Source: an uncultured Pseudomonadota bacterium (GTDB lineage: Bacteria > Pseudomonadota > Alphaproteobacteria > Rs-D84 > CACZYB01). From it: DNA of 30,715 bases. How positions within the stretch are numbered: the first letter of the stretch is position 1; the number at the start of each line of letters is the position of its first letter. The stretch is taken from contig CACZYB010000010.1 of NCBI GenBank assembly GCA_902785275.1, positions 1-30,715 of the forward strand. Reading direction: 5' to 3'. The notes beneath the pieces were generated by a model, which made no database searches, had not been told where the DNA came from, and saw nothing but the letters and a program-made list of their open reading frames with translations. Shown here piece after piece: positions 1 through 15,330 of the stretch. The position numbers were made by a program, and so were the translations under genes.

Positions 1-1
1 T

Positions 2-415: not shown

Positions 416-444
416 AATTACCAGGAAATAAAGGATTGCACTAA

Positions 445-987: not shown

Positions 988-1006
988 ATGACTAAATTTT
1001 TAACCT
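984..1006 (+). repeat. 23-bp direct repeat shared with 11528-11550
   Basis: ATAAATGACTAAATTTTTAACCT vs ATAAATGACTAAACTTTTAACCT (22/23). Confidence 0.75.
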
Positions 1007-1033
1007 ATGATTATAAAGTTATAGGAGAGTAAT

Positions 1034-1381: not shown

Positions 1382-1393
1382 AAGAGAATTAAA

Positions 1394-1933
1394 ATGTATT
1401 GGAAAAATTTAGATTTATTTAAAAAATACGGTATTAATTTATCTTTAAAAGATTTATATATTGGAGTATCAAACAAATATTTTCCTACAAACATATTGAG
1501 TGAATATTTTGATATCCTTTATGCTTCTCCATTATACAATGAAAAATATGATGTATTATTAGAAGAATTTGAATATAGAGAAGACGCTTTAGATTGTCTT
1601 AAAAAATTAGTGGATGTAAATAATATTAAAATTGATGATAGGGAGGATAAAGATGTCAAAAATTTTAATAGAAAATTGATGTATGTTAGATATTCAAATG
1701 CTTTGGAAACAATAAATAATTATGATGATTTAGTATATGAAGTTAATGATATTGCAGAGGACTTTTTTTATTATCCACCTAATATTTATGATTGCGTTTG
1801 GTATACGCCCTCTGCAGAATATAATATATTAGAACATACAAAAACGGAAAATTATGAAAGAATGGTTAACATACTTAAAAAATTTTTAGAAAATGAAAGA
1901 TTGGAAATAATCAAAAATGATAACGAAATATAA
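1394..1933 (+). CDS. DUF2247-like putative immunity protein
   Basis: Motifs RKLMY...IAEDFFYYP...VWYTP...NYERM..LKKFL resemble DUF2247 (IYADFxYP...YMP...NxxRL). Confidence 0.7.
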   Translation: MYWKNLDLFKKYGINLSLKDLYIGVSNKYFPTNILSEYFDILYASPLYNEKYDVLLEEFEYREDALDCLKKLVDVNNIKIDDREDKDVKNFNRKLMYVRYSNALETINNYDDLVYEVNDIAEDFFYYPPNIYDCVWYTPSAEYNILEHTKTENYERMVNILKKFLENERLEIIKNDNEI

Positions 1934-1951
1934 AAAAATAGGATATTTATT

Positions 1952-2830
1952 GTGTTAAAATATATAGATAGAAATACATTATGTTTACCAGATAATAGAA
2001 TCCTAAAATTCGGTATGAAAGAAAAAATCTTTATTAATGAATTTAAAGATATAATTACATGGTCTTCTAATACTCCAAATTTAATAAAACATAATGATGA
2101 TAGTGTAGAACATAATATGGAGTATCAAATTTTAGATAGTGTTTATGTTAATTTTTCTGATGGTTTTTTGTATTTATTTGATTTTTCTGAATGCAAAAAT
2201 TTTTACTATAATGATATAAATCTTGTAAATAACAATTATCAGAGTGTTATTAAAAGTATAAAAAACCTTGATTTTTCTTGCAAAAAATTACACTCAGGCT
2301 TCAAAAATTATGAATGTAAGGAATTAGGTCTTTTATTTGGTGAGGTTGGAAATTCTGGAAAAATAGCCACTGCATTTTATGCAGATTTTTTCAATCCTTC
2401 TACATTAGAAGTTAATAATATATCTAAATTTAATGGGAATTTTAAATATATAGACAGACATACACTACAATTACCCGATGGTAAATATTTGAACATAGGA
2501 ATTTCTGAAGACGATTTCCTTTGCAAGTTTAAAGATGATATTTCATGGCAATCTGAAACATCTTATTATATTTGTAACTATCGTTTACATATAGGTTTTT
2601 CAAACAAGACTTTGTATATGGTGGAATTTATTGGAAAAGAAAAATTTTTCTATAATGATATAAACTTAGCCGATACCGATTTTAAAAAGGTTATAAAGAA
2701 ACTTAAAAAACTATCTATAGATTGCATAAAAACAGAAAATGGAAACTACGATTGTAAACAGCTTGGTATTTTATTAGGTCCTGTCAATAACACACAAAAT
2801 ACTATTACAGCATTTTATTATAAAAAATAG
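1952..2830 (+). CDS. Putative immunity protein with two tandem copies of the domain in 445..987
   Basis: Internal duplication KYIDRNTLCLPD / KYIDRHTLQLPD, FYYNDINL / FFYNDINL, YECKELGLLFG / YDCKQLGILLG; GTG start with AGGA RBS. Confidence 0.7.
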   Translation: MLKYIDRNTLCLPDNRILKFGMKEKIFINEFKDIITWSSNTPNLIKHNDDSVEHNMEYQILDSVYVNFSDGFLYLFDFSECKNFYYNDINLVNNNYQSVIKSIKNLDFSCKKLHSGFKNYECKELGLLFGEVGNSGKIATAFYADFFNPSTLEVNNISKFNGNFKYIDRHTLQLPDGKYLNIGISEDDFLCKFKDDISWQSETSYYICNYRLHIGFSNKTLYMVEFIGKEKFFYNDINLADTDFKKVIKKLKKLSIDCIKTENGNYDCKQLGILLGPVNNTQNTITAFYYKK

Positions 2831-2879
2831 GGGATAAAACTTTAAAAAGAACGTTGAAACAATAAATGGATAATTAAAA

Positions 2880-3215
2880 ATGATAACGAAATATGAAAAA
2901 ATAAAATTAAATATTGAACAATATAGTATGTTAAAGGAAGTTTTAAATTTACCTGAAAATATAGTTGATAATTTGGGTTTTGTTGATGAGTATAATATTG
3001 ATTATATTTCTTTAAAAAGTAAATTGAAAATTTTTGAGGAAAATAATAAATATTTTTTATGTGGAAATATTGATGATATAATTGAATTGAATATAATTGT
3101 TCATGATTATTTGATATATTGTGGATTTGATGAAAATTATGAACCTAATAAAAAAGGTAAAATTTTAGAAGATTTAGTTGATTTACTATATGATGAAATA
3201 GAGAAGGAGAATTAA
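2880..3215 (+). CDS. Putative immunity protein (GFDENYEPNxxGxxLExL motif)
   Basis: Small acidic ORF; the C-terminal motif recurs in the N-terminal half of ORF 8444..9082. Confidence 0.65.
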   Translation: MITKYEKIKLNIEQYSMLKEVLNLPENIVDNLGFVDEYNIDYISLKSKLKIFEENNKYFLCGNIDDIIELNIIVHDYLIYCGFDENYEPNKKGKILEDLVDLLYDEIEKEN

Positions 3216-3216
3216 A

Positions 3217-3795
3217 ATGAAAAAATATGTTATATTACTTTTGTTAAATATGTTTACATTATCATGTTTAGCAGATACAAGTATTAATGAAGAAAAATAT
3301 TTAATTATAAATTATTCAAGGGCTTTTGGAAGAGGTGGAGAAAGTATGGTTTCTTTGTCAGATTTATCTTATAAAAAAAACTATAAAGATAAAAAAATAG
3401 AAAGTATTAATTATTATTCAAAATCAGATTGTATTAATGAAATTAGCAATTATATAAAAGAAGAAATATCTAGTGATACAGAAAATGGAAAATCTTTTAT
3501 ATATTATTATACTCCAGAAATTTATACAGTGTATTTTTGCATTGAAAAAAACATTTGGAATAGTGTTTATAAAAATGAAAAAGTAATTGCAAATAAGATA
3601 CAAAGAAAACGATATGTAAGTGGAGAGGAAAATATTTACAAAGATTTAAATGATTTTACAGAAAAAATGAAAAAGTGTGGGTTAATACATAAAATTGATG
3701 CAGATTATTTACCAACACCAGAAACTCCAGTTATTTGTGATAAATATAATGAAGAAAATCCAATTCCAACTAAAAAATTAAAGGATTTCTATTAA
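3217..3795 (+). CDS. Exported protein / possible lipoprotein, immediately upstream of tpsB
   Basis: N-terminal MKKYVILLLLNMFTLSCLA signal peptide with a Cys (non-canonical lipobox); AAGGAG RBS. Confidence 0.65.
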   Translation: MKKYVILLLLNMFTLSCLADTSINEEKYLIINYSRAFGRGGESMVSLSDLSYKKNYKDKKIESINYYSKSDCINEISNYIKEEISSDTENGKSFIYYYTPEIYTVYFCIEKNIWNSVYKNEKVIANKIQRKRYVSGEENIYKDLNDFTEKMKKCGLIHKIDADYLPTPETPVICDKYNEENPIPTKKLKDFY

Positions 3796-3812
3796 AATTT
3801 ATTGGTTAATTT

Positions 3813-5498
3813 ATGAATAAGTTTGGTTTTTATTTTACTGCTTTTATATCTTTAGCTACAAGTGTAAATGCACAGGTGGCGGAGGATATTCAACGTCATC
3901 AGCAGAATTTGATTGATGCTGGATTTCAAAAGCAAGAACTTGATCGTGCAATACATCAAACTCCCGCTTCAACATTTAAATATGCTGAACCAAAAACTCA
4001 AAAACCAAAATCTTCAAAATGTGTTGATATAAAAACAGTTGAATTTGATGGTAACACTAAACTTTCTAATTTTAGGATTAACCGAATTGTAAAACCATAC
4101 CTTAATAAATGTTTGAGTGTTGATGATATAAATAAGATTTTAAATACTATCACAAATGCCTATATTGATGCGGGGTATATCACAAGTGGGGCATACCTTA
4201 TTAATCCTCAAACAAAACTTAATGATGGTATTCTTCAAATAAAAATTGTAGAAGGGACAATAACCAAATTTACTGGAATAACAGAGGCAGAACGTAAAAC
4301 AGCTTTTCCATGGGTTTTGGGTTCTATCTTAAACCTTCGTGATATAGAACAAGGTTTGGATCAGATGAACAGACTTTCTTCTAATCATGCAAAAATGGAA
4401 ATAAAGGCAAACGAGGATGCAAATGGTACAAGTCAGGTTGTAATCACTAATGAACCAGAAAGTCCAACAAGCTATTCTGTTTATACTGATAATCTTGGCT
4501 CAAAATCAACAGGAGAATATAGATTAGGCCTAAGTTTAGTAGAAGATAATTTGTTTGGTATAAATGATCAACTTAATCTTGGTTATACAAACAGTTTGAC
4601 CTCTGAGTTAAATGAAAAATATTCAAGAGCTCTAAGTTTGGGGTATTCTATTCCTTTTGGATATTGGACTTTTACAAACAATGCATCATTTTCAGAATAC
4701 CAGACCTATATGAAACTACCAGTAAGTGGAGAAAAACTTTATTCGTTTGGTGATAATTTTAGCGAAAGTTTTATTATTGATAGAATTTTATCTAGGGGGC
4801 AAAATTATAAACTTTCATTATCTGCAAGTATGAATTACAAAAAGCCAAATAATTATACAAAGGTGCTTGATATAAAGACTAAGAATGACTCATCAAGCAG
4901 AGAAGTTGCTTTCTTTGAATATGCTTTACCTACAACTTTTTATTTTGATAGAGGTATAATTTTTGTAAAACCATCTTTTGTAGATGGAGCAAACTTTTGG
5001 GGTGTAGAGAAAGATAATGGAACTTATCCACAAAAGGCACAATTTGATGCTTATAAGTTATATTTGTATTCTAACTGGAATTTTGGATATGTAAGCTACA
5101 CTATGGCATTTGATGGACAATATACAGAAGATGAAATTATATCCTCTGAAACAGTATATATTGGTGGAGAAACTTCTGTTCGTGGATTTAAAGATGGTAT
5201 AAGTGGGGATAGTGGTTTTTATGTAAGGAATGATTTTAACCTAAATTTAGCAGAAATATTTAAAACTGAATCTTTATGGGCAAAATCAATAACGCCAAGT
5301 TTATTTTTTGATTATGGATGGGTAAAATCTAATTCAGATGATAGTAAGAATGAACTTTCTGGAGCTGGAACAAAATTATCATTTAGCTATGGTATGTTAG
5401 ATGCATCAGTGTCATATGCTATTCCAATAAAAAAAGAAGATAATATGACATCTAAAGGATATACATCTGTATATGTTGGTATCAAAGGAAGAATTTAG
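3813..5498 (+). CDS. ShlB/FhaC/HecB family two-partner secretion transporter (TpsB/CdiB)
   Basis: Signal peptide; POTRA motifs TNAYIDAGYITS, GILQIKIVEG, LNLRDIEQGLDQMNRL; Omp85 loop-6 motif IGGETSVRGFK; C-terminal beta strands. Confidence 0.95.
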   Translation: MNKFGFYFTAFISLATSVNAQVAEDIQRHQQNLIDAGFQKQELDRAIHQTPASTFKYAEPKTQKPKSSKCVDIKTVEFDGNTKLSNFRINRIVKPYLNKCLSVDDINKILNTITNAYIDAGYITSGAYLINPQTKLNDGILQIKIVEGTITKFTGITEAERKTAFPWVLGSILNLRDIEQGLDQMNRLSSNHAKMEIKANEDANGTSQVVITNEPESPTSYSVYTDNLGSKSTGEYRLGLSLVEDNLFGINDQLNLGYTNSLTSELNEKYSRALSLGYSIPFGYWTFTNNASFSEYQTYMKLPVSGEKLYSFGDNFSESFIIDRILSRGQNYKLSLSASMNYKKPNNYTKVLDIKTKNDSSSREVAFFEYALPTTFYFDRGIIFVKPSFVDGANFWGVEKDNGTYPQKAQFDAYKLYLYSNWNFGYVSYTMAFDGQYTEDEIISSETVYIGGETSVRGFKDGISGDSGFYVRNDFNLNLAEIFKTESLWAKSITPSLFFDYGWVKSNSDDSKNELSGAGTKLSFSYGMLDASVSYAIPIKKEDNMTSKGYTSVYVGIKGRI

Positions 5499-5512
5499 AA
5501 AAGAACTTTGGA

Positions 5513-5714
5513 TTATGGAAAACTATTCCATAAAAGCTCTAATTTTAGGGATTTCTAAAAGAAATAGATGAGTTAGAGAGTAGTGTTGTTATGGGTAGAG
5601 TTTTAGATTAAAACAACTTAGAATTGCAGATTTCTGCTAATTTAGAAAAGTTAGAGAAATGATGTTGAGTGACTCACCAAAAATCAGAAAAAACCGTTCT
5701 CTAAACGATTTTTT
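5513..5714 (+). repeat. Junction element copy 1 (att-like; core CACCAAAAATCA at 5675-5686) with hairpins
   Basis: 5641-5686 matches 11643-11688 at 43/46; perfect IR TTATGGAA/TTCCATAA at 5513-5533; imperfect terminator-like hairpin at 5688-5714. Confidence 0.85.
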
Positions 5715-6130
5715 ATTTCCTACAACACTAGGCTAAATCTAGCCTTTCTTGGGATTTTATCTGTGGGTACCAAATCAATTTTTTCCAAAAATTTTCCATT
5801 TTTTTGAGCCATTTTTCCTCTATTTTCTACGTTTAATCATTGGGTCCCGAGATTAAATTGTCATATAAAATTTGGTTCTTTTTAGGCTAACTATCAGATT
5901 TTACATGATTTATTGAAATTTCAATCATAAGGCCCTCAGTTCGAGTTCTGTAAGGCATAAAGATACCTAATAAACCCCAGAATTTAGCCATTTCTATATT
6001 CATATAAATTTCAGATTTTTTGATTTATATATTCTCTATGTCTTTTTATTTGTACTTTAGAAACATAGATAATACCTTAGTTATTGGTCATTGGTACCGA
6101 TAGAAAAGTTTTTTTATTTTCAGTAGTACC

Positions 6131-6158
6131 AAAACAACCTAATAAAACTCATCTATTT
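6131..6158 (-). repeat. ~28-bp inverted repeat, left copy (partner 11566-11592)
   Basis: Reverse complement AAATAGATGAGTTTTATTAGGTTGTTTT vs AAATAGATGAGTTTTTATGGTTGTTTT at 11566; AAATAGATGAGTT also occurs at 5562-5574. Confidence 0.75.
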
Positions 6159-6185
6159 TGAGAAGCATTATAAGGTTTATTTTCC

Positions 6186-6214
6186 TTGAAAGAAAGTTAT
6201 ATGAAATGTATAAT
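6186..6214 (+). promoter_or_regulatory. sigma70-type promoter of the immunity array
   Basis: TTGAAA-17 bp-TATAAT, followed by AAGGA RBS and ATG at 6241. Confidence 0.7.
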
Positions 6215-6240
6215 ATAGAATATTTATTTAAGGAAATATT

Positions 6241-6834
6241 ATGAAAATAAAATCAAAAGAACTTATTAATCAAATCTCAAATTTATATAATGTTATTTCT
6301 TCAAATAATATAGGTATTGATAATTTATTAAATTATAATTTAGATGATATAATAGATTGTGTATCTCAGGAAGAACAAAAAATCTGTGAGAATTTTAATG
6401 AATTATTTTTAAAATTAGATATAGAAGTTGGTGAGGCTGAACTTGAGGATAGAAATATTAATAAAAATCTAATTAAAGATATGGCTAATAAGGTCTTAGA
6501 AAAAATCAATTATTATAAGTATTTTATAGAAATAGATTTATCTCAATATAGTCCAATTCTTGACATGAATATTAAAGAATATATTAATATTTATACGAAT
6601 GTTAAACCTGATTTTTCAATTGAATTAAATAGTATTGTTCAAGATGGAATAAAAAGTTTCGGATTAAACGATGTTACTATCATTGATTTTATTAGGCAAG
6701 TTTCAATAGAATTAAAGAAATCAAATATTTTACTATTTAAAGATAAACTATGTTATAAAGATATAGAGCAATCATTAAGAGATTGGGAAAAAGATAAAAC
6801 TGATAAGTGGATTTTTAAGTACGGGAAAAAATAA
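6241..6834 (+). CDS. Hypothetical protein, candidate orphan immunity protein
   Basis: 197-aa acidic ORF with RBS; TAATG-coupled to the next ORF. Confidence 0.6.
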   Translation: MKIKSKELINQISNLYNVISSNNIGIDNLLNYNLDDIIDCVSQEEQKICENFNELFLKLDIEVGEAELEDRNINKNLIKDMANKVLEKINYYKYFIEIDLSQYSPILDMNIKEYINIYTNVKPDFSIELNSIVQDGIKSFGLNDVTIIDFIRQVSIELKKSNILLFKDKLCYKDIEQSLRDWEKDKTDKWIFKYGKK

Positions 6835-7295
6835 TGTTTATAAGTTTAAAAGAAAAAATAGGAATAAAAATGTTAAATTTTTTATTTAAAAGACAACGGA
6901 ATAAAGCTCAAAAGGATATTGATGGATTAAATCCAAACACATTAGTCCATAATTATAAAAAAATTTTGGAATTTATTAGCATTAAGATGCCAAAAATGCG
7001 TTGGCAAGACAATTACTTAGACGAAGATATTTGGGCTAATAATGTTAGTGAAATAGATAAATTACATAAAGCATTAAAAAATTTTTATATAGATTACCCA
7101 TTATCGACATATAAGATGAAGTTATATTGTGATAAAAACTGCAAATACTTGTTTGAAGATTTATTTAATGGTAAAAAAGTATCTCAAGATGTAAATCCCA
7201 TAACTCACGTTAAGTGTTCTTTTACTTTAAATGGCAAAACACAACACAAAATGATAAAGATTTCAAAATGCAAATTTATCCTAAAAAGGAACTAA
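6834..7295 (+). CDS. Hypothetical protein (basic) in immunity array
   Basis: 153-aa ORF translationally coupled (TAATG) to the upstream gene; no recognised motif. Confidence 0.55.
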   Translation: MFISLKEKIGIKMLNFLFKRQRNKAQKDIDGLNPNTLVHNYKKILEFISIKMPKMRWQDNYLDEDIWANNVSEIDKLHKALKNFYIDYPLSTYKMKLYCDKNCKYLFEDLFNGKKVSQDVNPITHVKCSFTLNGKTQHKMIKISKCKFILKRN

Positions 7296-7309
7296 AAAGG
7301 GAAAATAAA

Positions 7310-7843
7310 ATGATAAAAGCAAAATATGTAGAAGATATATCAAGTATCAAAGATCTTCTTATTATAGATGGTGAAAAATGTAAGACAGAACAAGATTTAT
7401 TTAATGAATATGCAACTGTACTAAACTTCCCAAGTTGGTTTGGAAAGAATTGGAATGCTTTTGATGAATGTCTGAATGAGTGTGTTTATAACGAAGAGGA
7501 TAAAAATAAACCTATATATGTATATATAAAGAATATAGAAATGATTTGTTGTAAAATGTATATTTTGGAAAGTTTTTCTAATTTCTATAATAAAGTTAGT
7601 TTTGATGATGACGAAGAAAGTAATATTTGTTTTATATTTGATAAACGTACTTTGATGTTTTTACGAAAAGAAATAATCAAAAATTTTAAGAATAATGATT
7701 TTTATCATTTGTTTTTTTCAGATATTTATTGGAATGATGATATTGGTGAAAAAATAAAAGTCCGAATGCTAGAACATTATATTTTATCTTTTTTACATAT
7801 CCTTGGTGTTTTGAATTTGAAAATTATTCTTTTAGAATCATAG
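7310..7843 (+). CDS. Barstar-family (RNase inhibitor) immunity protein with C-terminal extension; probable frameshift near the 3' end
   Basis: IIDGEKCKT..DLF..YATVLNFPSWFGKNWNAFDECL is the barstar signature; ATG at 7310 has an AAGGG RBS and is preferred over 7214. Confidence 0.85.
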   Translation: MIKAKYVEDISSIKDLLIIDGEKCKTEQDLFNEYATVLNFPSWFGKNWNAFDECLNECVYNEEDKNKPIYVYIKNIEMICCKMYILESFSNFYNKVSFDDDEESNICFIFDKRTLMFLRKEIIKNFKNNDFYHLFFSDIYWNDDIGEKIKVRMLEHYILSFLHILGVLNLKIILLES

Positions 7844-7880
7844 AAGATGCAATTTATGATATTTTAAAGAAGGATAAATA

Positions 7881-8429
7881 ATGAACGATAAAAAGGACCT
7901 CTTACAAGTTAAATATTATCTGGAAAATATCTATAACAATATAGATATTGAAAATAATATAAAATTATTTCAAAGTATTATTTGGGATGAAAGTAAAGAT
8001 TTTTCAGAATACCTTCTGGAATTAGCATATGATTTGGACTTCTATAATTCTGATGCCTTGGATGAAAAAGTATGTGGCTTAGCTGATAGAAATGGTTTTT
8101 ATAGTTACAATACTATTAAAGATATGATATACGATACATTAAGAATATTAAATATGGAAGTATTATTAAAAGAACAAGAAGATAAGATATTAGATAAAAA
8201 TTTAAAAAAATGGTATATTGCTCATAAAATACTGCCTAAACGAATTACTATAGAAAATCAAAATCTTTATTTAATTACAGATCATAATGGTGTTGATGAT
8301 GCAAATTATAGAATATTTTTAAATCCTACAAATAATACTTTGGGTTTAGAATTTTTGGATAAAAACGATAACAGTATAATAATTGAAGAAAATATTGCAG
8401 ACTTAAATGAAGCATTAAATAATATGTAA
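7881..8429 (+). CDS. Putative two-domain (poly)immunity protein
   Basis: N-half LELAYDLDFY motif; C-half W...P...LITDH..DD..YRI..N...T similar to ORF 9932..10228. Confidence 0.65.
   Translation: MNDKKDLLQVKYYLENIYNNIDIENNIKLFQSIIWDESKDFSEYLLELAYDLDFYNSDALDEKVCGLADRNGFYSYNTIKDMIYDTLRILNMEVLLKEQEDKILDKNLKKWYIAHKILPKRITIENQNLYLITDHNGVDDANYRIFLNPTNNTLGLEFLDKNDNSIIIEENIADLNEALNNM
8367..8411 (+). repeat. 45-bp direct repeat with 11084-11128
   Basis: GATAACAGTATAATAATTGAAGAAAATATTGCA(G/A)ACTTAAATGAA, 44/45 identical. Confidence 0.9.
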
Positions 8430-8443
8430 AAGGCTAGAAGTAA

Positions 8444-9082
8444 ATGATTATAAATTTAAAAGAAAAAAATATAATTGAAAAATATTTGAAAGAAGCCTCT
8501 TATAAAATAGATGTTATTTCGGATAAAAAATTTGATTTCCAATTTGAAAATTTAGATAAAACAATAGATTTACTAACAGATATTTTTACAAATTATGGTT
8601 TACAAGAAAATGATGAACCTAATGAAGATGGTTTAATTTTAGATAATTTAATAGGAAAATTATGGCAATTAAAGTTAAATAACAATAAAGAAAAACTTGA
8701 TGCATGGATTAAAAATCAAAATGTAAATTATCCATCAAGTGGTCATTTGGATGATATTTTTGAAGTGTCTACAATAGATTTGGATATAATTGAATCTTCA
8801 TTGAATTTGTTATCAGAATGTAATACAAAATCTGAGCCAGATAAGATATTAACTTTATGTATATACTTGAAGGAAAGAAAAAATAGTCTTGCGAATATTA
8901 CTCAACTAAAGATGAATATGTTATCGGAAGAACCTCCTGAATTTGTTTTCCAAAAAAATAAAGATATTCCTACAAAAGAAATTTTTATTAAAAACTTCCC
9001 TGTAAATTTAAAATACTATTTAGGAGAGGTTTTTGATAATGATGATAAATTATATTATCCATACATAGTTGTGAAGAGGTAA
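8444..9082 (+). CDS. Putative two-domain (poly)immunity protein
   Basis: N-half GLQENDEPNEDGLILDNLI is homologous to 2880..3215; unrelated C-half (HLDD...EPPEF). Confidence 0.65.
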   Translation: MIINLKEKNIIEKYLKEASYKIDVISDKKFDFQFENLDKTIDLLTDIFTNYGLQENDEPNEDGLILDNLIGKLWQLKLNNNKEKLDAWIKNQNVNYPSSGHLDDIFEVSTIDLDIIESSLNLLSECNTKSEPDKILTLCIYLKERKNSLANITQLKMNMLSEEPPEFVFQKNKDIPTKEIFIKNFPVNLKYYLGEVFDNDDKLYYPYIVVKR

Positions 9083-9084
9083 TA

Positions 9085-9927
9085 ATGCAAGAAAGAGATG
9101 TTATATTAAAATTAATACATTTATTAAAAGATGATAAGGATATTATTTCCATAGCAAATGATATATTTTTTTACAGAGGTATTTATTCTGATTTTAAATA
9201 TTCTGATAGATTTAGAGAGATTTTGCTAGATATTATTACACAAGAAGAAGGCGAAGAATTTATTATTCCAAAAGAAGAATTGTTGAATAAATTACATTTA
9301 TTGCTTGCAGAAAATAAAAATAGCACTGTTTCAACAGTTGAATTAAGAATTTTAAAGGAAATTTTTAATACTGGTTTTGTATCAAGTAATAATATCACGG
9401 ATTTTGCTTATGCTTGTTCAAATGATATGAACGATTTATTAACTGAATTATATAAATATGAAAATAAGACTATAAATGATGATATAAAATTTAAAATATC
9501 TAGATTTATTCATAAATTGGAAGGAGATGACTTTCTTTCTGATAAACCAACAAATTTAGGCATTGTTTTAGAAGATATAATTAAAAAATTTCCAGACGTA
9601 AAAGATGATGTAGAGCAAGAGTTATCAGATTGTTATATTCCTATAAATGCTATAAAATATTTATCTCATTTGGATATAATAATGTTTAGTGTTATTGGGC
9701 GTGTTTGTTTTAGGAAATATAAAGATAATAATATTGAGTATGTAAAAAATGTTTTTGATTATATGGAAAACCTTTATATGAAGGATAAAACATTTGATCT
9801 AAGTATAAAAACAGGATTTGTCGAAGCCTTTGTTAATCAGTTTGATAGTGTAAATGATATACAAAGTATAATAGAATTTATGTCCGAAAACTTAAAGAAA
9901 TATGTTTCTGCATATATTGGAGAGTAA
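9085..9927 (+). CDS. Putative multi-domain polyimmunity protein
   Basis: N-terminal helical module ending QEEGEEFIIPKEEL; C-terminal helical module FPD...VFDYMENL...IKTGFVEA (DUF7674-like by eye). Confidence 0.6.
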   Translation: MQERDVILKLIHLLKDDKDIISIANDIFFYRGIYSDFKYSDRFREILLDIITQEEGEEFIIPKEELLNKLHLLLAENKNSTVSTVELRILKEIFNTGFVSSNNITDFAYACSNDMNDLLTELYKYENKTINDDIKFKISRFIHKLEGDDFLSDKPTNLGIVLEDIIKKFPDVKDDVEQELSDCYIPINAIKYLSHLDIIMFSVIGRVCFRKYKDNNIEYVKNVFDYMENLYMKDKTFDLSIKTGFVEAFVNQFDSVNDIQSIIEFMSENLKKYVSAYIGE

Positions 9928-9931
9928 TAAA

Positions 9932-10228
9932 ATGAATGAATTTGCAAGTTATAGCATATTAAGTGACAAAGTAAAAAATTCTCACCTTCCACGATATGTT
10001 AAAGATTGGTTCTTTGAGTATATGGATGTCGTTCCTTTTGAAAAAAGTATTTATGATTTAGACGGTAATAATTTTAAAATTACAGATAAAATTGTTGATG
10101 ATGGAGAATATTTGATTTGTTATAATAGCTTTGATGATACTTTCTATTTCATCTGTCTAGATGATGTTGGAAATATGAAAATACATGGAAAAAGTAATAA
10201 TATTATAGGCATACTAACTTTTAGGTAA
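9932..10228 (+). CDS. Candidate orphan immunity protein
   Basis: ATG 9932 with GGAG RBS (preferred over 9902); similar to the C-half of 7881..8429. Confidence 0.6.
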   Translation: MNEFASYSILSDKVKNSHLPRYVKDWFFEYMDVVPFEKSIYDLDGNNFKITDKIVDDGEYLICYNSFDDTFYFICLDDVGNMKIHGKSNNIIGILTFR

Positions 10229-10234
10229 AATAAC

Positions 10235-10552
10235 ATGACAAAAAATATTAAGTATATAAATAGTAAAGTTATAGATTTTAAAGGCAACAAAATCTTCTTT
10301 GAGAATGGAAGTATTTTAATTGTTATTTCAGATTTTAAATTTACTGGAGAAAAGATAAAAGGACTATTTCTTTCGGATTACGAAATTTCTGAAAAAAAGG
10401 TTAAGTTTAATTTTGAAAATAAATGCGATATAGAAATTATCGCTCCGTATTCTGAGGATGAGGTTTTCTGTGTAATTAATGTAGATGAGAAATATAGATG
10501 CCTATTAACAAAAGATAATATTTTTGGAGAATGGATAGGATTAGAGAAATAA
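10235..10552 (+). CDS. Candidate orphan immunity protein (beta-rich, similar to 1034..1381)
   Basis: Two IxFEN/FxFEN beta-hairpin units; tight operon spacing. Confidence 0.55.
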   Translation: MTKNIKYINSKVIDFKGNKIFFENGSILIVISDFKFTGEKIKGLFLSDYEISEKKVKFNFENKCDIEIIAPYSEDEVFCVINVDEKYRCLLTKDNIFGEWIGLEK

Positions 10553-10564
10553 AGGGAAAATACA

Positions 10565-11041
10565 ATGATTGATTTTACAAAATTTTACGATGATCTTAGT
10601 TTTATCTATGCCTTGTTTATGGAGAATAAATTAACCATAGATGATATAAGAAAAATTTCTGATAAATTAGTTATTGAAGATGGTAATGATTATTTAGTTA
10701 ATATATTAATTTCAAATGATGAAGAAGTTTCAAATTCTTTTGAAAATTATTTCAAAGATAAAAACATAATAATAGAAAATCCTAAAATAGAAATTACGAA
10801 GAAAATTTTTTCATATATCTTAAAAGGTTGTATTTCTATGAAGGCTGGTATTGATTTTGTGCATTACCAAATTAGTGATCAGTCAAAATATAAAAAATAT
10901 GTTGGTGATGATTTAGGTATAGAGCAAATTTTAGGAAACTATTTTGCAATAGATGATGGAGATGTTGCTGATGAAAAACAAATTCATGAACTTACACAAG
11001 AAATATACAAAGAAATGCAGGAATATATTGAAAAGTATTAA
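10565..11041 (+). CDS. Candidate orphan immunity protein (helical, acidic)
   Basis: 158-aa ORF, AAGGG RBS, within the co-oriented array. Confidence 0.6.
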   Translation: MIDFTKFYDDLSFIYALFMENKLTIDDIRKISDKLVIEDGNDYLVNILISNDEEVSNSFENYFKDKNIIIENPKIEITKKIFSYILKGCISMKAGIDFVHYQISDQSKYKKYVGDDLGIEQILGNYFAIDDGDVADEKQIHELTQEIYKEMQEYIEKY

Positions 11042-11065
11042 AATTAATAAAAGGAAAATTATTAA

Positions 11066-11146
11066 ATGAAAATAAAATTTAAAGATAACAGTATAATAAT
11101 TGAAGAAAATATTGCAAACTTAAATGAAATATTAGAAAATTTATAG
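11066..11146 (+). pseudogene. 26-aa remnant mini-ORF MKIKFKDNSIIIEENIANLNEILENL
   Basis: Has an AAGGA RBS and stop codon; the body duplicates the last codons of ORF 7881..8429 in the same frame. Confidence 0.65.
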
Positions 11147-11155
11147 GAGGTATTT

Positions 11156-11539
11156 ATGCAACAAGAATATAGAATATTTTTACCACATGAAATACAAAAT
11201 AAGGTCTTTCCTTTAGTTCCATACTATAATAACCAATTAGGATTTTATATAGATATCTTAGATGATATTATAAAATTTGTAAAAGAATATGAACTTTTAA
11301 TAGGTTATGGAGAGATCTTTAAAAAAATAGATGATAAAGATTTTGATTATGATCCAACGGGATTTACTCATTGGGAATACAACTATAAACCAGAAAATGA
11401 ATATAGAAAATCTGTATCAGAAGCGATAGAACAGATGAAAGAGTATTTAAAATTTGTATCTTCTATAAGACAAGATAAATATTTAATTTCAATAAAGTTG
11501 TATGATAAATATAGCATTCAAAATTTTATAAATGACTAA
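11156..11539 (+). CDS. Imm40-like immunity protein
   Basis: AGGAGG RBS; pattern LIGYGEIF...THWEY...SVSEA..MKEYL resembles Imm40 (ILGGDVY...DNWY...S...A..YI). Confidence 0.6.
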   Translation: MQQEYRIFLPHEIQNKVFPLVPYYNNQLGFYIDILDDIIKFVKEYELLIGYGEIFKKIDDKDFDYDPTGFTHWEYNYKPENEYRKSVSEAIEQMKEYLKFVSSIRQDKYLISIKLYDKYSIQNFIND

Positions 11540-11565
11540 ACTTTTAACCTTTTGATTTTTTTAGT

Positions 11566-11716
11566 AAATAGATGAGTTTTTATGGTTGTTTTTGTTTATC
11601 CGAAATAGATTAGAAACTTGTAGAATAGCAAAAAGACTGACTTTTAGAAAAGTTAGAGAAATGGTGTTGAGTGGCCCACCAAAAATCAAGAAACCGTCCT
11701 AGTAATGGTTTTTTCT
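11566..11716 (+). repeat. Junction element copy 2 (core CACCAAAAATCA at 11677-11688); starts with the right copy of the 28-bp IR
   Basis: Colinear with 5562-5714 (AAATAGATGAGTT ... TTTAGAAAAGTTAGAGAAATG ... CACCAAAAATCA ... AAACCGT hairpin). Confidence 0.85.
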
Positions 11717-12094
11717 TTGCCTGTAAACCCTAGGTTCTGCCTAGTGTTTGGATTTCAGATTTTTCTATAAAACCCACAGAATTGATTAAAAACAAATTTT
11801 TCACAGTATTTTCTCTCTATTCTCTATGCTTTATCTGTGGGCTCCGTTAACCATTTGATATTACTTAGTTTTCTTTTGATGGGTATCTTAGAAAAGTTGT
11901 AAAAAAATTAACCAGTAGCGGATTTATATTTGCTAACTGATGCATAGAGGTAGTCTTAAATTTTAAAACCTTAGTTTTCTGTGATATTTACGGGGCCTAT
12001 AGACTTTATTAATAAAAACAAATTCCTTCTAATTATTCCTAATTTATGGTATGATAAATTTAATTATTAGACTAAATTATTGATAAAATAAATA

Positions 12095-12123
12095 TTGACA
12101 AATAATAATTATAAGTCTATATT
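12095..12123 (+). promoter_or_regulatory. sigma70-type promoter of the helicase gene
   Basis: TTGACA-17 bp-TATATT; the ORF track's TTG start at 12095 is this -35 box. Confidence 0.75.
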
Positions 12124-12145: not shown

Positions 12146-14764
12146 ATGAATATAGTTAATTTAGTAAAAAATACAATATTAGATAATGTTAAAGCATTAA
12201 GGATTGGTATAAGTAAATTTTTAGAAGAAGAACAAAATTTACCTGATGATACCCCACGTAAACTTCGTGGAAAACAAACTGAAGTTTTTGAGGCATTATT
12301 AAAACCGGAATTTTCAGATGAAGATATTGCAAGAGGTTATTTCAAACTTCCAACCGGATTTGGAAAAACTGTTATGTTTGCTCATTTAACAAAATCTTTC
12401 TTAAATGAAACACCTGATAGTAAAAAGAAAATATTGGTTTTGGTACCAAGAATTAACTTACTTGAACAAACAGATGAAAAATTTGATAAATTTATAGGAG
12501 TAGATACAAGCTACTTTTATGGTAAAGAAAAAGATACATCTTCAAGAGTAATTATTTCAACATACCAATCTCTTAGTAATTTATTAAAAAATATTAATAA
12601 AGAAGATATAGATTTAATTATTGCCGATGAAGCTCATCATTCTCTTGGTGAAAATACAAGTAAAATATTTAAAGATTTACAAAAGTATGCACCTACAATT
12701 GCATTTACCGCTACACCAAATTATTCAGGTGATAAAAAGTTATCAAACTTATTTTCGAAAGAAATTTATTCAATGACCACTATTGATGCAGTACAAAACA
12801 ATATGTTGGTTCCTGTAAAAAATATTCTTTTAAGGTCAAGTATTGAATTTGATTTATCTCAAATTAAAAAGAAAACTGATGGAAATTTTGATTATGAAAA
12901 AATTGCAAATTCTATAAGTATGGAAACATTATCCAAAGAAATTGCAAAGGCATATTTGTATGGTGAAGATAAGGATGAAGAAGGTAATTCATTCCGTTTT
13001 TTTGGTAAAAAGGCAATGATAAGTTGCCCTAATGTTAAAACAGCAATAGAGCAAGCAGAAAAACTTAATGAACTTGCGGGGCAAGTTATTGCAAAACCAA
13101 TATTCCAACATATGGGAATGTCTTCAAGATTTGGTAAGTTCGATGAAACAGTCGAAGATTTCAAAAATAATAAATTCCTTGTTGCATGTCAGGTTAATAC
13201 CTTAACTGAAGGTTTTGATGATACAGAGGTAAGTATCAGTATTAATTATCCAACATCATCTCCTGTAAGAGAAGAGCAATCTGCAGGTCGTGCACTTCGT
13301 ATCAATGAAAAAGATCCGAACAAAGTTGCATATGTTATTGATACAGTATTTTCTGTTGGTAAAGATGATGAAAATCCATTTGAAACTGCACAAAAGGCTG
13401 GACAAGTTTTATTTAGTGATGTTGCTGGTGCATCTGTTATATTCCCTGAAAATTTTAAACATAAAAAAGAAGAAAATGATAGGGATAATAAAGGAAAAGA
13501 TAAAGAAAAATTTCCACTTCCAACACCAGATATAGAAATACCAGGATTTAAAATTTTTACTGACACAGAAAAATTATTACAGGTGTTTAATGACAAAATA
13601 AAAGATGATAACTACTATTCTACCATAGATTTAGCTAACGATAAATCTTTAGGTGTAGAGGCTTCTCATACTACACATCGTAAATACCTAAATAAAGCTT
13701 ATAATTCAAATGATCCTAAATATGCTAAACTAAAAACTCATATAAGAAAAACTAGAAATGATGAACTACGTTTGCATAAGGATGGTTTGGAACTATACAA
13801 AGAAATCTATTTTAGCAATAATCGGTATTCTGCCGCAGATTTAGCTAACGATAAATCTTTAGGTGTAGAGGCTGCTAAATCAACGCATTGGAGATACCTA
13901 AATGAAGCTTATGAATCAAATGATCCTAAATATGCTAAACTAAAAACTCATATAGAAAAAATTAAAAACGGACTACGTTTGCATAAGGACGGTTTAGAAT
14001 TATATAAACAGATCTATTTTAGCAATAATTGGTATTCTACCACAGATTTAGCTAACAATAAATCTTTAGGTGTAGGGGCTTCTAACTCAACACATTGGAC
14101 ATACCTAAATGAAGCTTATAAATCAGATGATACTAAATATGCTGAATTAAAACCTTATATAGGAAAAATTAAAAATGGACTAAGTTTGCATAAGGACGGT
14201 TTAGAATTATATAAACAGATCTATTTTAGCAATAATTGGTATTCAGCCACAGATTTAGCTAACGATGAATCTTTAGGTGTAGAGGCTTCTATAAATACAC
14301 ATTATAGATACCTAAAAGAAGCTTATGATAAATATGCTGAATTAAAACCTTATATAAAAGGACCACGTTTGCATAAGGACGGTTTAGAATTATATAAACA
14401 GATCTATTTTAGCAATAATTGGTATTCTGCCTCAGCTTTAGCTAACGATGAATCTTTAGGTGTAAAGGCTTCTAAAAATACACATTTGAATCACCTAAAT
14501 AAAGCTTATAATTCAAATGATCCTAAATATGCTGAACTAAAAACTTATATGAAAAAAACTGATAAAGGAAGTAAAAGTTTTATATATTTGCGTAAAGATG
14601 GTTTGAAGCTATATGTTCAAACATTTAAAATAAAAATCAGAGATCCTGAAATGTTTGAAAAAGCAACAAAGAAAATAGAACAAAAAATTGCGATGGAAGA
14701 TGCGGCACAAAATGCAAAATCTTCAATCAATAAAACTATAGCAGGTGACAACGAAGGAAGATAA
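12146..14764 (+). CDS. SF2 DEAH-box helicase (ResIII-like + helicase C) with five C-terminal HTH-like repeats
   Basis: LRGKQ (Q motif), LPTGFGKT (Walker A), ADEAHH, FTATP, LTEGFD, QSAGRALR; ATG 12146 has a GAGG RBS. Confidence 0.9.
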   Translation: MNIVNLVKNTILDNVKALRIGISKFLEEEQNLPDDTPRKLRGKQTEVFEALLKPEFSDEDIARGYFKLPTGFGKTVMFAHLTKSFLNETPDSKKKILVLVPRINLLEQTDEKFDKFIGVDTSYFYGKEKDTSSRVIISTYQSLSNLLKNINKEDIDLIIADEAHHSLGENTSKIFKDLQKYAPTIAFTATPNYSGDKKLSNLFSKEIYSMTTIDAVQNNMLVPVKNILLRSSIEFDLSQIKKKTDGNFDYEKIANSISMETLSKEIAKAYLYGEDKDEEGNSFRFFGKKAMISCPNVKTAIEQAEKLNELAGQVIAKPIFQHMGMSSRFGKFDETVEDFKNNKFLVACQVNTLTEGFDDTEVSISINYPTSSPVREEQSAGRALRINEKDPNKVAYVIDTVFSVGKDDENPFETAQKAGQVLFSDVAGASVIFPENFKHKKEENDRDNKGKDKEKFPLPTPDIEIPGFKIFTDTEKLLQVFNDKIKDDNYYSTIDLANDKSLGVEASHTTHRKYLNKAYNSNDPKYAKLKTHIRKTRNDELRLHKDGLELYKEIYFSNNRYSAADLANDKSLGVEAAKSTHWRYLNEAYESNDPKYAKLKTHIEKIKNGLRLHKDGLELYKQIYFSNNWYSTTDLANNKSLGVGASNSTHWTYLNEAYKSDDTKYAELKPYIGKIKNGLSLHKDGLELYKQIYFSNNWYSATDLANDESLGVEASINTHYRYLKEAYDKYAELKPYIKGPRLHKDGLELYKQIYFSNNWYSASALANDESLGVKASKNTHLNHLNKAYNSNDPKYAELKTYMKKTDKGSKSFIYLRKDGLKLYVQTFKIKIRDPEMFEKATKKIEQKIAMEDAAQNAKSSINKTIAGDNEGR
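13610..14625 (+). repeat. Five in-frame coding tandem repeats (units start 13610, 13820, 14027, 14234, 14417; first four 210/207/207/183 bp)
   Basis: Consensus NxYSxxDLANDxSLGVxAxxxTHxxYLNxAY...KYAxLKxxI...LHKDGLELYKxIYFSN; DNA-level identity is obvious. Confidence 0.95.
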
Positions 14765-14810: not shown

Positions 14811-14930
14811 TTATGGAAATGGTAGGGTATTCCCATAAGGTACAAATTAGAGAAGTGTAAAAATAGTAGATTTCTCTAATTACAACAAAAGTTATAAGAA
14901 GTGCTATGGTGTTACCCACCAAAAATCAGA
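14811..14930 (+). repeat. Junction element copy 3 (core CACCAAAAATCA at 14917-14928), island/core-genome boundary
   Basis: TTATGG...CCATAA hairpin as in copy 1; AGATTTCTCTAATT...AAAAGTTA...CACCAAAAATCAGAAA; internal IR AATTAGAGAA/TTCTCTAATT at 14845-14881. Confidence 0.75.
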
Positions 14931-14958
14931 AAGGCTTCCTTACGGAGGCCTTTTTTTT
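14930..14958. terminator. Rho-independent terminator
   Basis: AAAGGCTTCC-TTAC-GGAGGCCTTT stem followed by a T tract; also faces the convergent gene ending at 14971. Confidence 0.8.
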
Positions 14959-14970
14959 ATCTTGTCTTGA

Positions 14971-15330
14971 TTAATTATTCAAATCTGTTGATGGCAAAAT
15001 ATAGTTTTCATAAGTTACAACAGGAACAGTCTTTCTTTCGCCAAGACCTGTTTTATACTCATAAATACCACTGTGTACAGCACACTTACCCGCAGGAATT
15101 TCAATTTTTGCAGTATCAAAGTATGTTACACCAGGTTCTTTTGCAATTTTGACAGTTGTTGTGTAATGACATTTGCCAAACAATGTATCTTCACATGCTT
15201 TTGCAAGTACATAGTCAGTACCAACTTGATAAACTTCGAATGCTTCGTAATCTTTACAATTTTCATTTCTTACACCTTCAAAAGGAACACAAGCGCAAAG
15301 AAGTAATGGTAAAAGTAATGATTTTTTCAT
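14971..15330 (-). CDS. Hypothetical lipoprotein
   Basis: MKKSLLLPLLLCAC lipobox; AAGGAG RBS; DUF3157/OB-like GxYxYxT motif not assigned. Confidence 0.75.
   Translation of the reverse strand: MKKSLLLPLLLCACVPFEGVRNENCKDYEAFEVYQVGTDYVLAKACEDTLFGKCHYTTTVKIAKEPGVTYFDTAKIEIPAGKCAVHSGIYEYKTGLGERKTVPVVTYENYILPSTDLNN

Follow-up and report, generated by a model that had tools for sequence, protein, structure and literature searches.

Winged helix-turn-helix (wHTH) domains of the excisionase/MerR type occur in Tn916 Xis, Pukovnik Xis, RdfS, BldC, RacA, pSK1 Par, and the N-domains of MerR proteins. On direct repeats, Xis, BldC, Par, and RacA assemble head to tail into multimers that coat the DNA. TALE repeats are helical, span about 33 to 35 amino acids, and carry two hypervariable residues. 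The gamma domain of FtsK is a winged helix, and like the target-recognition domains of type I restriction HsdS, it is a swappable or sequence-reading DNA module that directs an ATP-driven motor. Several small domains also stand in a row in the winged helices of SelB and in the actinobacterial “HA” helicase-associated repeats. The C-terminal tandem winged helix of Lhr and the LOTUS/OST-HTH arrays are further cases, some of them attached to helicases or acting on them, to judge by the titles and opening lines of the abstracts of three papers (PMC7437997, PMC10953399, PMC7279887), and one of these describes MARF1 as having multiple LOTUS domains (PMC7279887).

We analyzed a 30,715-nucleotide stretch of DNA, referred to here as the window, in which one gene encodes a superfamily 2 (SF2) helicase that continues into five tandem units. 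These units share with excisionase/MerR domains a size of about 55 to 70 amino acids and, in the predicted fold, the same order of elements (helix, turn, helix, beta-hairpin wing, helix), and such domains were their best matches in three structure searches. They differ in that the domains are covalently chained one to nine times and fused to a motor, and in that the lineage of the window has, in the model, an additional short helix after helix 2 and before the wing. Chaining the domains covalently would imitate the multimers that Xis, BldC, Par, and RacA form. With TALE, zinc-finger, and PPR readers the protein shares a concept, namely tandem near-identical units with few hypervariable positions and with gain, loss, and shuffling of units. 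It is not a TALE array, since its units have 61 to 73 residues, contain a beta hairpin, and have about 10 variable positions each. No one-unit-one-base code is apparent, the variation is spread over those positions, and whole unit subtypes differ. Unlike in HsdS and FtsK, the putative reader is a tandem array within the motor protein itself, with no methylase or nuclease. Finally, neither the window protein nor its units matched the Lhr, LOTUS/OST-HTH, SelB, or HA families, or any other known helicase-associated repeat, in Pfam at an E value of ≤1. We know of no report that the Lhr, LOTUS, SelB, or HA repeats are hypervariable or cassette-like.

A probably monocistronic gene for a helicase with a C-terminal array

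The 872-residue product consists of a DExH SF2 helicase, five tandem units of 61 to 73 residues, and a 41-residue tail. All features are on the plus strand.

12095 to 12123, plus strand: promoter-like site TTGACA-17-TATATT, 11 of 12 matches, a consensus match only
12146 to 14764, plus strand: helicase-array coding sequence, 872 amino acids, with an ATG at 12146 after a GAGG ribosome-binding site
12260 to 12721, plus strand: first RecA-like lobe of the SF2 motor (aa 39 to 192), ResIII, with motif I GFGKT and motif II DEAH
13004 to 13306, plus strand: second lobe of the SF2 motor (aa 287 to 387), Helicase_C, 29.5 bits against a Pfam cutoff of 23.5
13307 to 13612, plus strand: post-motor segment and acidic linker (aa 388 to 489), with columns invariant across the family in the alignment
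13613 to 13822, plus strand: repeat unit 1 (aa 490 to 559, 70 aa), from tandem repeat and alignment
13823 to 14029, plus strand: repeat unit 2 (aa 560 to 628, 69 aa), the unit that was folded
14030 to 14236, plus strand: repeat unit 3 (aa 629 to 697, 69 aa), from the alignment
14237 to 14419, plus strand: repeat unit 4 (aa 698 to 758, 61 aa), lacking 8 residues between helix 2 and the wing
14420 to 14638, plus strand: repeat unit 5 (aa 759 to 831, about 72 aa), more divergent and more basic than the other units, net charge +8
14639 to 14761, plus strand: C-terminal tail (aa 832 to 872, 41 aa), conserved within the genus

The stop codon lies at 14762 to 14764. A TTG at 12095, also listed as a start, is probably not the true one. 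The gene is probably monocistronic and is followed on its 3′ side by a terminator-like hairpin (14928 to 14955). No Rfam family or tRNA was found in the window. Isoelectric points are 9.3 for the array, 5.6 for the motor, and 4.8 for the linker.

The motor

As had been proposed, the motor is of the ResIII-like SF2 type. ResIII matched aa 39 to 192 in Pfam (E = 2.2e-29; 102.9 bits against a cutoff of 22.5), Helicase_C scored above its gathering cutoff, and Walker A (GFGKT) and DExH (DEAH) motifs are both present in the translation. DEAD (E = 7e-16; 58.8 bits against a cutoff of 26) and SWI2_SNF2 (E = 4.3e-14) also matched. In PHROGs, the motor matched phrog_16, “DNA helicase,” at an E value of 2.5e-54, and its nearest solved sequences are DNA enzymes, namely XPBII (1.5e-8), RadD, Hef, Rad25, and HsdR. 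The GKT and DEAH motifs and both domains are common to the window protein, to the ResIII, XPB, RadD, and HsdR motors, and to phrog_16, and the similarity is significant but distant (23 to 30% identity to phage relatives). Compared to the ResIII, XPB, RadD, and HsdR motors, the window protein has no nuclease, zinc finger, or partner subunits.

More specific identities were rejected. The RadD model NF053632 of NCBIfam gave 65.4 bits against a cutoff of 720, and the type I restriction HsdR model TIGR00348 gave 41.4 bits against 284.55, with no nuclease domain in Pfam. A phage origin was also rejected: GenBank phages matched the helicase core alone, at less than 60% identity, with none of 1,132 records covering at least 80% of the query, and IMG/VR helicases were just 23 to 29% identical, with the unit absent from all 80 viral loci.

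Five units with variable positions in a shared scaffold

The array was the top-scoring tandem repeat of the whole 1.05-Mb genome in Tandem Repeats Finder (period of 207 nucleotides, 3.4 copies, 87% matches, score of 1052) and so is not a product of chance. The shortened fourth unit appeared as a period of 183 nucleotides. The predicted number of five repeats held up, with tandem units of 70, 69, 69, 61, and about 72 residues whose starts are placed to within one residue (aa 490/491, 560/561, 629/630, 698/699, and 759/760) and which are 61 to 78% identical to unit 2. Their scaffold had been described as near-invariant. This is right at the level of motifs only: when the five units are aligned, 40 of the 63 columns vary in one unit or more.

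Across 11 units, those of the window protein and of its closest relative, P0002, entropy was highest at columns 3 and 4 (after YS), 18 and 19 plus 22 and 23 (flanking TH), and then 30, 45, and 48 and 49. The variable positions named beforehand, at the YSxx pair, right after LGV, and in the wing-like loop, were therefore correct. In the model, columns 18, 19, 22, and 23 have the spacing i, i+1, i+4, i+5 and occupy the opening two turns of helix 2. The C-terminal half of unit 5 is conserved with relatives whose arrays are otherwise different, and the last 50 residues are 59 to 74% identical within the genus, independent of array content.

Contigs of the best-covering public run tiled the window array with no differences, but as pieces of 80 to 205 nucleotides. 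Since no contig of that run reaches from one end of the array to the other, the count of five units depends on the original assembly. Three other runs (X2 to X4) left parts of the stretch uncovered. Two contigs of low depth hint at copy number variation: one X2 contig repeats a unit (it “goes back 210”), and one X4 contig, with only 25 letters on one side, skips 13789 to 14614.

The predicted fold is a winged helix whose nearest structures are of the excisionase/MerR type

An AlphaFold2 model of unit 2, built on a 15-unit alignment, was confident (pLDDT of 92.4, pTM of 0.81) and has the order strand, helix, helix, (short helix), beta-hairpin wing, helix. The top Foldseek matches in the PDB were HiNmlR (a MerR protein), Pukovnik Xis, and RacA. 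In BFVD, they were excisionases and HTH, MerR, PrtN, and AlpA-type proteins, with probabilities up to 0.99 and TM scores of 0.45 to 0.64. The best structural matches are weak yet coherent, comprising excisionases, MerR-type regulators, Par, RacA, and BldC. In a three-unit model (pLDDT of 83.9, pTM of 0.58), the last helix of each unit continues straight into the next unit, and the final helix of the linker (residues 4 to 18 of the model) resembles the last helix of a unit. A fold search with this model returned single-domain matches alone and no known multidomain arrangement.

Sequence searches did not name a family. In Pfam, no family was matched by two or more of 42 single units, and HTH_17 and MerR were absent among families with an E value of ≤1 for the window protein, its relatives, and these units. 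PF0610-like_N (PF21476), a wHTH family with a cutoff of 33 bits, was passed by two Enterousia relatives (P0037, 37.5 bits; P0042, 35.9 bits) and was not matched by the window protein. A Bro-N/KilA-N identity was rejected; Bro-N appeared on 1 of the 42 units (E = 0.0023), and the protein of locus L004 scored 17 bits against a cutoff of 25.6. In the PDB, the array sequence had no matches at an E value of ≤10, and the 42-unit profile had nonsignificant ones alone (the AtxA N-terminal wHTH and an Lrs14-like protein, both 0.14; MarR, 1.2). The array likewise had no significant match in PHROGs or NCBIfam. Taken together, the MerR/excisionase wHTH assignment of the original prediction is in keeping with the predicted fold and the weak but coherent structural matches of a single repeat, without a sequence match to the HTH_17 or MerR models.

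Arrays diversify and are exchanged against a conserved motor

In five relatives from the same genus, the motor is 92 to 95% identical to that of the window protein, while the best unit identity is just 30 to 40%. Identity falls at about aa 481 and returns at about aa 811. The two parts also come apart within Enterousia, where loci L012 and L014 have motors that are 97% identical and units that are about 70 to 80% identical, and loci L011 and L012 have motors that are 91% identical and units that are about 98% identical. Arrays are related through insertion, deletion, duplication, and shuffling of units. By these comparisons, whole arrays are exchanged against a conserved motor.

In 10 arrays, differences among the units of one array peak at profile columns 9 and 12 (helix 1), 18 to 20 and 24 (the start of helix 2), and 44 to 47 (the wing tip), with values of 0.62 to 0.93 compared to ≤0.1 at core columns. 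These hot positions are partly loops and helix ends, places that are variable in any domain. We defined hot columns on five old arrays and tested them on five young ones as a cross-validation. At the hot columns of the young arrays, dN was 0.43 and dS was 0.20, about a twofold excess, with an omega of 0.57 elsewhere; the test is crude, using Nei-Gojobori counts and nonindependent pairs without a recombination model, and gene conversion between units can distort such estimates. The ratio of dN at hot columns to dS at all columns was 26.9 for L009, 5.6 for L010, 2.0 for L014 and for L016, and 1.3 for the window, whose own excess is small. L009 has 16 amino acid-variable columns and 1 synonymous-only column, and L010 has 19 and 3. 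By this crude, cross-validated test, the prediction of diversification holds for the family as a whole, with the excess of replacements in helix 1, where helix 2 begins, and at the tip of the wing.

An undescribed family in two genera of Rs-D84

The helicase-array architecture is confined to 2 of 30 genera of Rs-D84, a gut order with reduced genomes (58 of 328 genomes). In the genus of the window, the gene is accessory, being present in 3 of 14 genomes. All 19 helicase loci in species-representative genomes carry units, and helicase domains were also found in 56 of the 64 proteins recovered by the unit profile. Arrays have one to nine units, although most assemblies are metagenomic, in which tandem repeats may be collapsed or misjoined, so that very short arrays and copy numbers are uncertain. 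Clustering at 88% identity grouped the 506 units of 123 proteins into 314 clusters.

Stand-alone arrays without a motor also exist, which implies that the array does not need the motor; no helicase gene was found beside them, as a split gene would have it. Two matches from the representative library (P0005 and P0006) were unrelated repetitive proteins and were dropped. Two loci (L005 and L006) encode helicases of 31% identity with different N termini and no unit matches and were placed outside the family; by sequence, they look like type I restriction R subunits.

The repeat family and the helicase architecture are undescribed, and the current annotation is only “DEAD/DEAH box helicase family protein.” Among titles and the openings of abstracts, the literature on tandem winged helices with helicases held nothing on this architecture. 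The word “helicase” is absent from the available main text of the study of Rs-D84 (PMC12306168), passages of which infer that these bacteria are obligate symbionts or parasites.

Genomic context

Repeated intergenic elements lie on both flanks of the gene.

11540 to 11960, plus strand: upstream repeated intergenic element, a direct repeat with a conserved core around 11640 to 11700, then a terminator-like hairpin
14850 to 14960, plus strand: downstream repeated intergenic element, a shorter copy that includes the terminator-like hairpin at 14928 to 14955

A 14-nucleotide core of the element occurs at 5673, 11675, and 14915, where 0.48 occurrences are expected, and more copies of the element are found on contigs C1, C2, and C7. 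No mobility gene stands beside the helicase-array gene in the window. The idea that the gene is cassette cargo has weak support, from its accessory distribution (3 of 14 genomes) and the flanking elements. A tandem-repeat scan of the whole genome for a target of the array gave no noncoding array obviously linked to the gene.

A scan of the 35 other open reading frames of the window found no nuclease or methylase, as had been stated for potential partners. Neither a conserved partner gene nor a defense-island context was found in the window or at the loci of relatives. PADLOC-DB v2 gave just partial matches to the helicase core (REase_I, 4e-14; PbeA, 1e-6) and, for the window and relatives, no specific anti-phage system match with partners. 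In 6 of 19 loci (L020 to L024 and L027), the gene is fixed directly upstream of ligA and a PBP1 gene, a place that suggests ordinary DNA metabolism rather than conflict. With generic PADLOC matches, no defense island, and one subgroup syntenic with ligA, the claim of a single-gene defense or effector system would be a conjecture. The window gene itself adjoins a two-partner-secretion toxin/immunity array.

A translocase that may be aimed by its array

With moderate confidence, we read the protein as a DNA translocase whose target is set by a modular wHTH array that evolves rapidly. Its C terminus would form a semirigid chain of five wHTH modules of the excisionase/MerR structural type. The basic array would bind nucleic acid, most likely double-stranded DNA, and each unit would make contacts through the beginning of helix 2, helix 1 before it, and the tip of the beta-hairpin wing. 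Situated between a conserved motor and a conserved tail, the array would be the specificity part and would determine the site, or the DNA molecule, at which the ATP-driven motor works. In nature, it is exchanged, lengthened, shortened, and point mutated at the proposed contact positions, and the swapping suggests a targeting device that can be reassorted. Nucleic acid binding, sequence specificity, and biological role of the array are what we infer from the comparisons above. Such fast change fits a target that itself changes, either mobile or foreign DNA or fast-evolving repeated sites. A conflict-related role, in defense against mobile DNA or in its control, would thus be the most likely biological setting of the family.

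Alternative explanations

The place upstream of ligA raises another reading, a housekeeping or repair helicase whose wHTH chain is a nonspecific DNA tether or processivity aid, much like the repeated accessory DNA-binding domains that other helicases carry, with the variation reflecting drift and concerted evolution of a loosely constrained tail. The basic array, the repair enzymes among the nearest solved motors, the missing partner gene and nuclease, and an omega below 1 outside the hot columns all agree with it. However, a housekeeping gene would not be expected to show so patchy a spread (2 of 30 genera, and a minority of genomes even in the genus of the window), and a drifting tail would account poorly for dN above dS at cross-validated positions, for young arrays rich in amino acid-changing columns, and for sharp identity breaks at array borders with a mosaic of motor and array conservation across lineages. 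We consider this reading unlikely.

Hypervariability and module shuffling would also suit a sensor. The units could be winged helices that bind a protein or another ligand, respond to a fast-evolving partner (a protein of a phage or of a partner cell, for instance), and turn the motor on or off; protein contacts through winged helices are known, and arrays do occur on their own. Yet the named structural neighbors are nearly all DNA binders, the variable positions match the usual DNA-contact elements of wHTH domains, and the array has a net positive charge, which makes a ligand sensor quite doubtful.

The enzyme is very unlikely to be an RNA helicase or remodeler with an array for binding RNA, structured RNA, or G-quadruplexes. 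Some tandem winged helices, such as those in the C terminus of SelB, do bind RNA, and the motor does match Pfam DEAD; against this, motif II is DEAH, ResIII is the best match, the nearest solved relatives are XPB, RadD, Hef, and HsdR, and neither an RNA family nor a structured RNA turned up in the neighborhood.

If the protein were a secreted effector, it would act on DNA in a host or partner cell; this would suit an organism thought to depend on other cells (PMC12306168, in the passages noted above), a tail conserved in each lineage, and a neighboring toxin/immunity array. That neighboring locus, however, belongs to the contact-dependent toxin type, the helicase gene is served by a promoter-like site and a terminator of its own, no signal peptide or recognized secretion signal was seen, and the context differs in relatives, so this reading strikes us as highly improbable.

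We give next to no credence to an assembly artifact as the source of the array or its variability: the array is not spanned by a single contig of the best public run and some relatives have suspiciously short arrays (e.g., one or two identical units), but independent contigs cover every part of the window array at 100% identity, the architecture is seen again and again, in 58 genomes and in 123 proteins of many assemblies, with the reading frame open in all of them, and unit differences are overwhelmingly coding and position specific.

Implications

Returning to the translocase with a modular array, a bolder version is speculative and, in our judgment, improbable. The units could make up a wHTH alphabet for DNA recognition in which each reads a short DNA word through a few hypervariable residues in helix 1, where helix 2 begins, and at the tip of the wing. 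Bacteria would reassort hundreds of unit types into arrays of one to nine units that direct an SF2 motor to chosen DNA or go there on their own. Nature would then have a second counterpart of TALE arrays, unrelated to them in structure, and it possibly serves as a single-gene system against mobile DNA in symbionts with reduced genomes. If the array does read DNA unit by unit, it would offer a new and compact framework on which DNA targeting could be designed, with about 70 residues per unit and more than 300 natural unit types from which to work out a code. On a modest reading, too, an undescribed repeat family and helicase architecture have been defined. The family also shows clearly how a specificity module diversifies in cassette-like fashion in bacteria whose genomes measure about 1 Mb. 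Because such genomes keep few accessory genes, a gene that is retained and diversified points to strong selective pressure, for example, from mobile DNA or from partner-cell interactions, and no member of this lineage has yet been brought into culture.

A helicase gene with its own promoter-like and terminator-like sites

The window is one entire 30.7-kb contig of a 1.05-Mb genome with 32% G+C. Because its helicase-array gene is flanked by its own promoter-like site and terminator-like hairpin, it looks monocistronic.

Features of the helicase-array gene
12095-12123 (+), strong promoter-like site upstream of the ORF
12146-14764 (+), helicase-array ORF, preceded by a GAGG ribosome-binding site; 872-aa product
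14928-14955 (+), terminator-like hairpin 3' of the ORF

The N-terminal part of the product is an SF2 motor, in which Pfam identified ResIII (aa 39 to 192, E 2.2e-29) and Helicase_C (aa 287 to 387). GFGKT and DEAH motifs were both read in the translation, and by sequence the motor belongs with those that act on DNA. The motor is acidic (pI 5.6) and the array basic (pI 9.3). Five tandem units of 70, 69, 69, 61, and about 72 aa begin at aa 490, and a 41-aa tail closes the protein. A tandem-repeat scan of the DNA (period 207 nt, 87% matches, score 1052) ranked this array as the top tandem repeat of the whole genome. Independent contigs from one public run tile the array with 0 differences in short pieces only, and the copy number rests on the original assembly. 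Our unit alignment reproduced the repeat motifs and variable positions named in the original prediction, but its “near-invariant scaffold” was too strong, as one or more units differ at 40 of 63 aligned columns.

Each unit is a predicted winged helix

The array had no covering sequence match in Pfam, PHROG, NCBIfam, or PDB, and no Pfam family was matched by at least two of 42 single units. We therefore conclude that, at the sequence level, the unit represents an undescribed family. AlphaFold2, given unit 2 and 15 aligned units drawn from three lineages, returned a model (pTM 0.81, pLDDT 92.4) with a strand, helices at 8 to 13 and 23 to 35, a short helix at 39 to 45, a beta hairpin at 48 to 58, and a helix at 59 to 70. 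The short helix maps to a stretch present in the window lineage only. Fold searches with this model gave weak yet mutually consistent matches. The best Foldseek matches in the PDB were a MerR regulator, Pukovnik Xis, and RacA (E 0.3 to 0.4), and those among viral models were excisionases and HTH, MerR, PrtN, and AlpA-type proteins (E 0.02 to 0.4, probability up to 0.99). Two Enterousia relatives passed the Pfam threshold for PF0610-like_N, a winged-HTH family. From the models, we conclude that the unit is a predicted winged HTH of the two-helix-plus-wing kind, the fold originally expected for one repeat.

In a three-unit model (pTM 0.58, pLDDT 83.9), the last helix of each unit enters the first strand of the next without a linker, and a similar helix sits ahead of unit 1. 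These linker-free joins suggest that the units probably form a fairly stiff chain, not beads on a string.

Arrays change faster than motors

We compared the window protein with five same-genus relatives. The motors are 92 to 95% identical and the last 50 residues 59 to 74% identical, while the best unit-to-unit identity is 30 to 40%. Along the protein, identity is 80 to 100% over most of the motor to about aa 480, falls to 6 to 53% from there to about aa 810, and partially recovers afterward. The five relatives carry 2 to 6 units each, of three or four different subtypes. The window's subtype is shared with its closest relative (P0002) alone, whose array of six units includes a nearly identical pair. 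In Enterousia, unrelated arrays sit on motors 85 to 97% identical. Between loci L012 and L014, the units are about 70 to 80% identical and the motors 97%, while between L011 and L012 the units are about 98% identical and the motors 91%. This mosaic pattern among Enterousia loci indicates recombination. Clustering at 88% identity sorted 506 units from 123 proteins into 314 types, and arrays are distinguished from one another by inserted, deleted, duplicated, and reused units.

The units of an array differ most in the first helix (profile columns 9 and 12), where the second helix starts (columns 18 to 20 and 24), and at the tip of the wing (columns 44 to 47). These would be the positions that usually touch DNA in winged-helix domains. 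To avoid circularity, the ten hottest columns were set on five old arrays and tested on five young ones. In the young arrays, dN exceeded dS at the hot columns (0.43 versus 0.20) and omega was 0.57 at the remaining columns; the window array's own excess, at a ratio of 1.3, was modest. The two youngest arrays had 16 and 19 amino-acid-changing columns versus 1 and 3 synonymous-only columns. Since these are Nei-Gojobori counts over dependent pairs, with no gene-conversion model, and the sequences are metagenome assemblies, we take the result to indicate strongly, but not to prove, that selection favors diversity at the hot positions.

The family is patchy within Rs-D84

A unit profile search recovered 64 proteins, 56 of them with helicase domains. 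Species-representative genomes yielded 19 helicase loci, all with units; these genomes are animal-gut MAGs that carry the label Candidatus Enterousia or uncultured Alphaproteobacteria. The profile matched 58 of 328 genomes of the window's order (37 of 224 high-quality genomes), confined to 2 of the 30 genera of Rs-D84, namely the window's genus (3 of 14 genomes, its own included) and one other (55 of 257). The family was absent from the viral contigs searched. Rs-D84 members are described as having ~1 Mb genomes and an inferred dependence on other cells (PMC12306168).

Arrays hold 1 to 9 units. Motor-less arrays of 312, 373, and 460 aa lie inside long contigs, and no helicase gene was found beside the stand-alone arrays in the neighborhoods inspected. 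One of them, with five units, lies at L030:3522-6517 (genome G164), immediately 3' of a large serine recombinase gene (Resolvase, Recombinase, and Zn_ribbon_recom domains), which suggests carriage on an integrative element. A distant motor relative (P0132; 681 aa, 35% identity) has HTH_23, HTH_38, and HTH_Tnp_Tc3_1 in its precomputed Pfam list in place of repeat units; these transposase-type families raise the possibility that other HTH tails may be attached to this motor type.

Neighboring genes

Upstream of the gene lies a two-partner-secretion toxin/immunity array; downstream are core genes of 33 to 38% G+C, including secG, kdsB, pssA, psd, a topoisomerase subunit, recO, and cysS.

Features surrounding the helicase-array gene
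1-11539, two-partner-secretion/contact-dependent-inhibition-type locus, 21-25% G+C
1394-1933, DUF2247-like ORF, immunity-like
3813-5498, ShlB/FhaC-type transporter, mid-locus
7214-7843, Barstar-like ORF, immunity-like
9085-9927, DUF7674-like ORF, immunity-like
5499-5920, 11540-11960, and 14850-14960, repeated noncoding element
G000 C1:45100-45227, C2:151227-151361, and C7:6608-6729 (other contigs), further copies of the element
14971-15330 (-), 119-aa ORF without a Pfam match

The toxin C terminus is truncated by the contig start and weakly matches Tox-URI2. About 16 small same-strand ORFs, some immunity-like, follow the transporter, and contigs C4 and C8 carry paralogous pieces of the locus. 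ORF 6834-7295 overlaps the Barstar-like ORF by 82 nt. The latter matches C8 in several separate pieces and thus may be a frameshifted or rearranged immunity gene.

The repeated element (about 100 to 400 nt), in which a terminator-like hairpin comes after a conserved core, had no Rfam match. Copies sit 3' of the transporter gene, the immunity array, and the helicase gene, so that the last two bracket the helicase gene. The element may serve as a terminator module or a small RNA, or mark a recombination junction. The 119-aa ORF reads toward the helicase terminator from the opposite strand, and its N terminus, a hydrophobic segment that ends in Cys, resembles that of a lipoprotein.

Gene neighbors vary among the relatives' loci with no conserved set; one integrase and one resolvase were seen. 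GNAT acetyltransferase genes (Acetyltransf_3 type) occur within a few kilobases, on either strand, at the Enterousia loci L007, L008, L012, L014, L016, L018, L025, and L026, and none adjoins the window copy. The gene plsX adjoins a helicase-array gene (L019:3593-7115) and a stand-alone array (L028:5431-7825) in two different genera and may be a recurrent insertion site.

What the array may do

No description of this architecture was found in full-text literature searches, nor was a curated family found for the unit; other forms of tandem winged helix and of helicase-attached repeat are already known. The structural and evolutionary reading of the original prediction largely held; its proposals of defense or effector function, of “cassette cargo,” and of a “TALE-like code” are still hypotheses.

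Two purposes are each favored by some evidence. Conflict with mobile DNA would fit the pace of array change and the patchy distribution. Ordinary DNA metabolism, with the array as a loosely constrained tether, would fit the synteny with ligA in one divergent subgroup. At its six loci (L020 to L024 and L027), the helicase-array gene lies directly upstream of ligA (NAD-dependent DNA ligase, same strand) and the gene for PBP1, a class A penicillin-binding protein (e.g., L021:2992-9399), a fixed place in the core genome with fabI and a TM2-domain gene on its upstream side. It would also fit the lack of partner genes: as originally noted, no nuclease or methylase, nor any other partner, was found in the window or the relatives' loci. 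For the window protein, PADLOC reported only helicase-core similarity. Possible too are an array that senses protein or binds RNA and a protein that is an exported effector. We consider a genuinely modular DNA-reading code unlikely.

Taken together, the DNA-type motor, units that look like DNA-binding winged helices, diversified contact-type positions, and a cassette-like array point to an aimed translocase as the best-supported mechanism, to which we give roughly an even chance. The array would be a swappable cassette held between a conserved motor and a conserved tail, its units would act as DNA-binding winged helices whose diversified positions contact DNA, and this modular, fast-evolving array would aim a DNA translocase or helicase.
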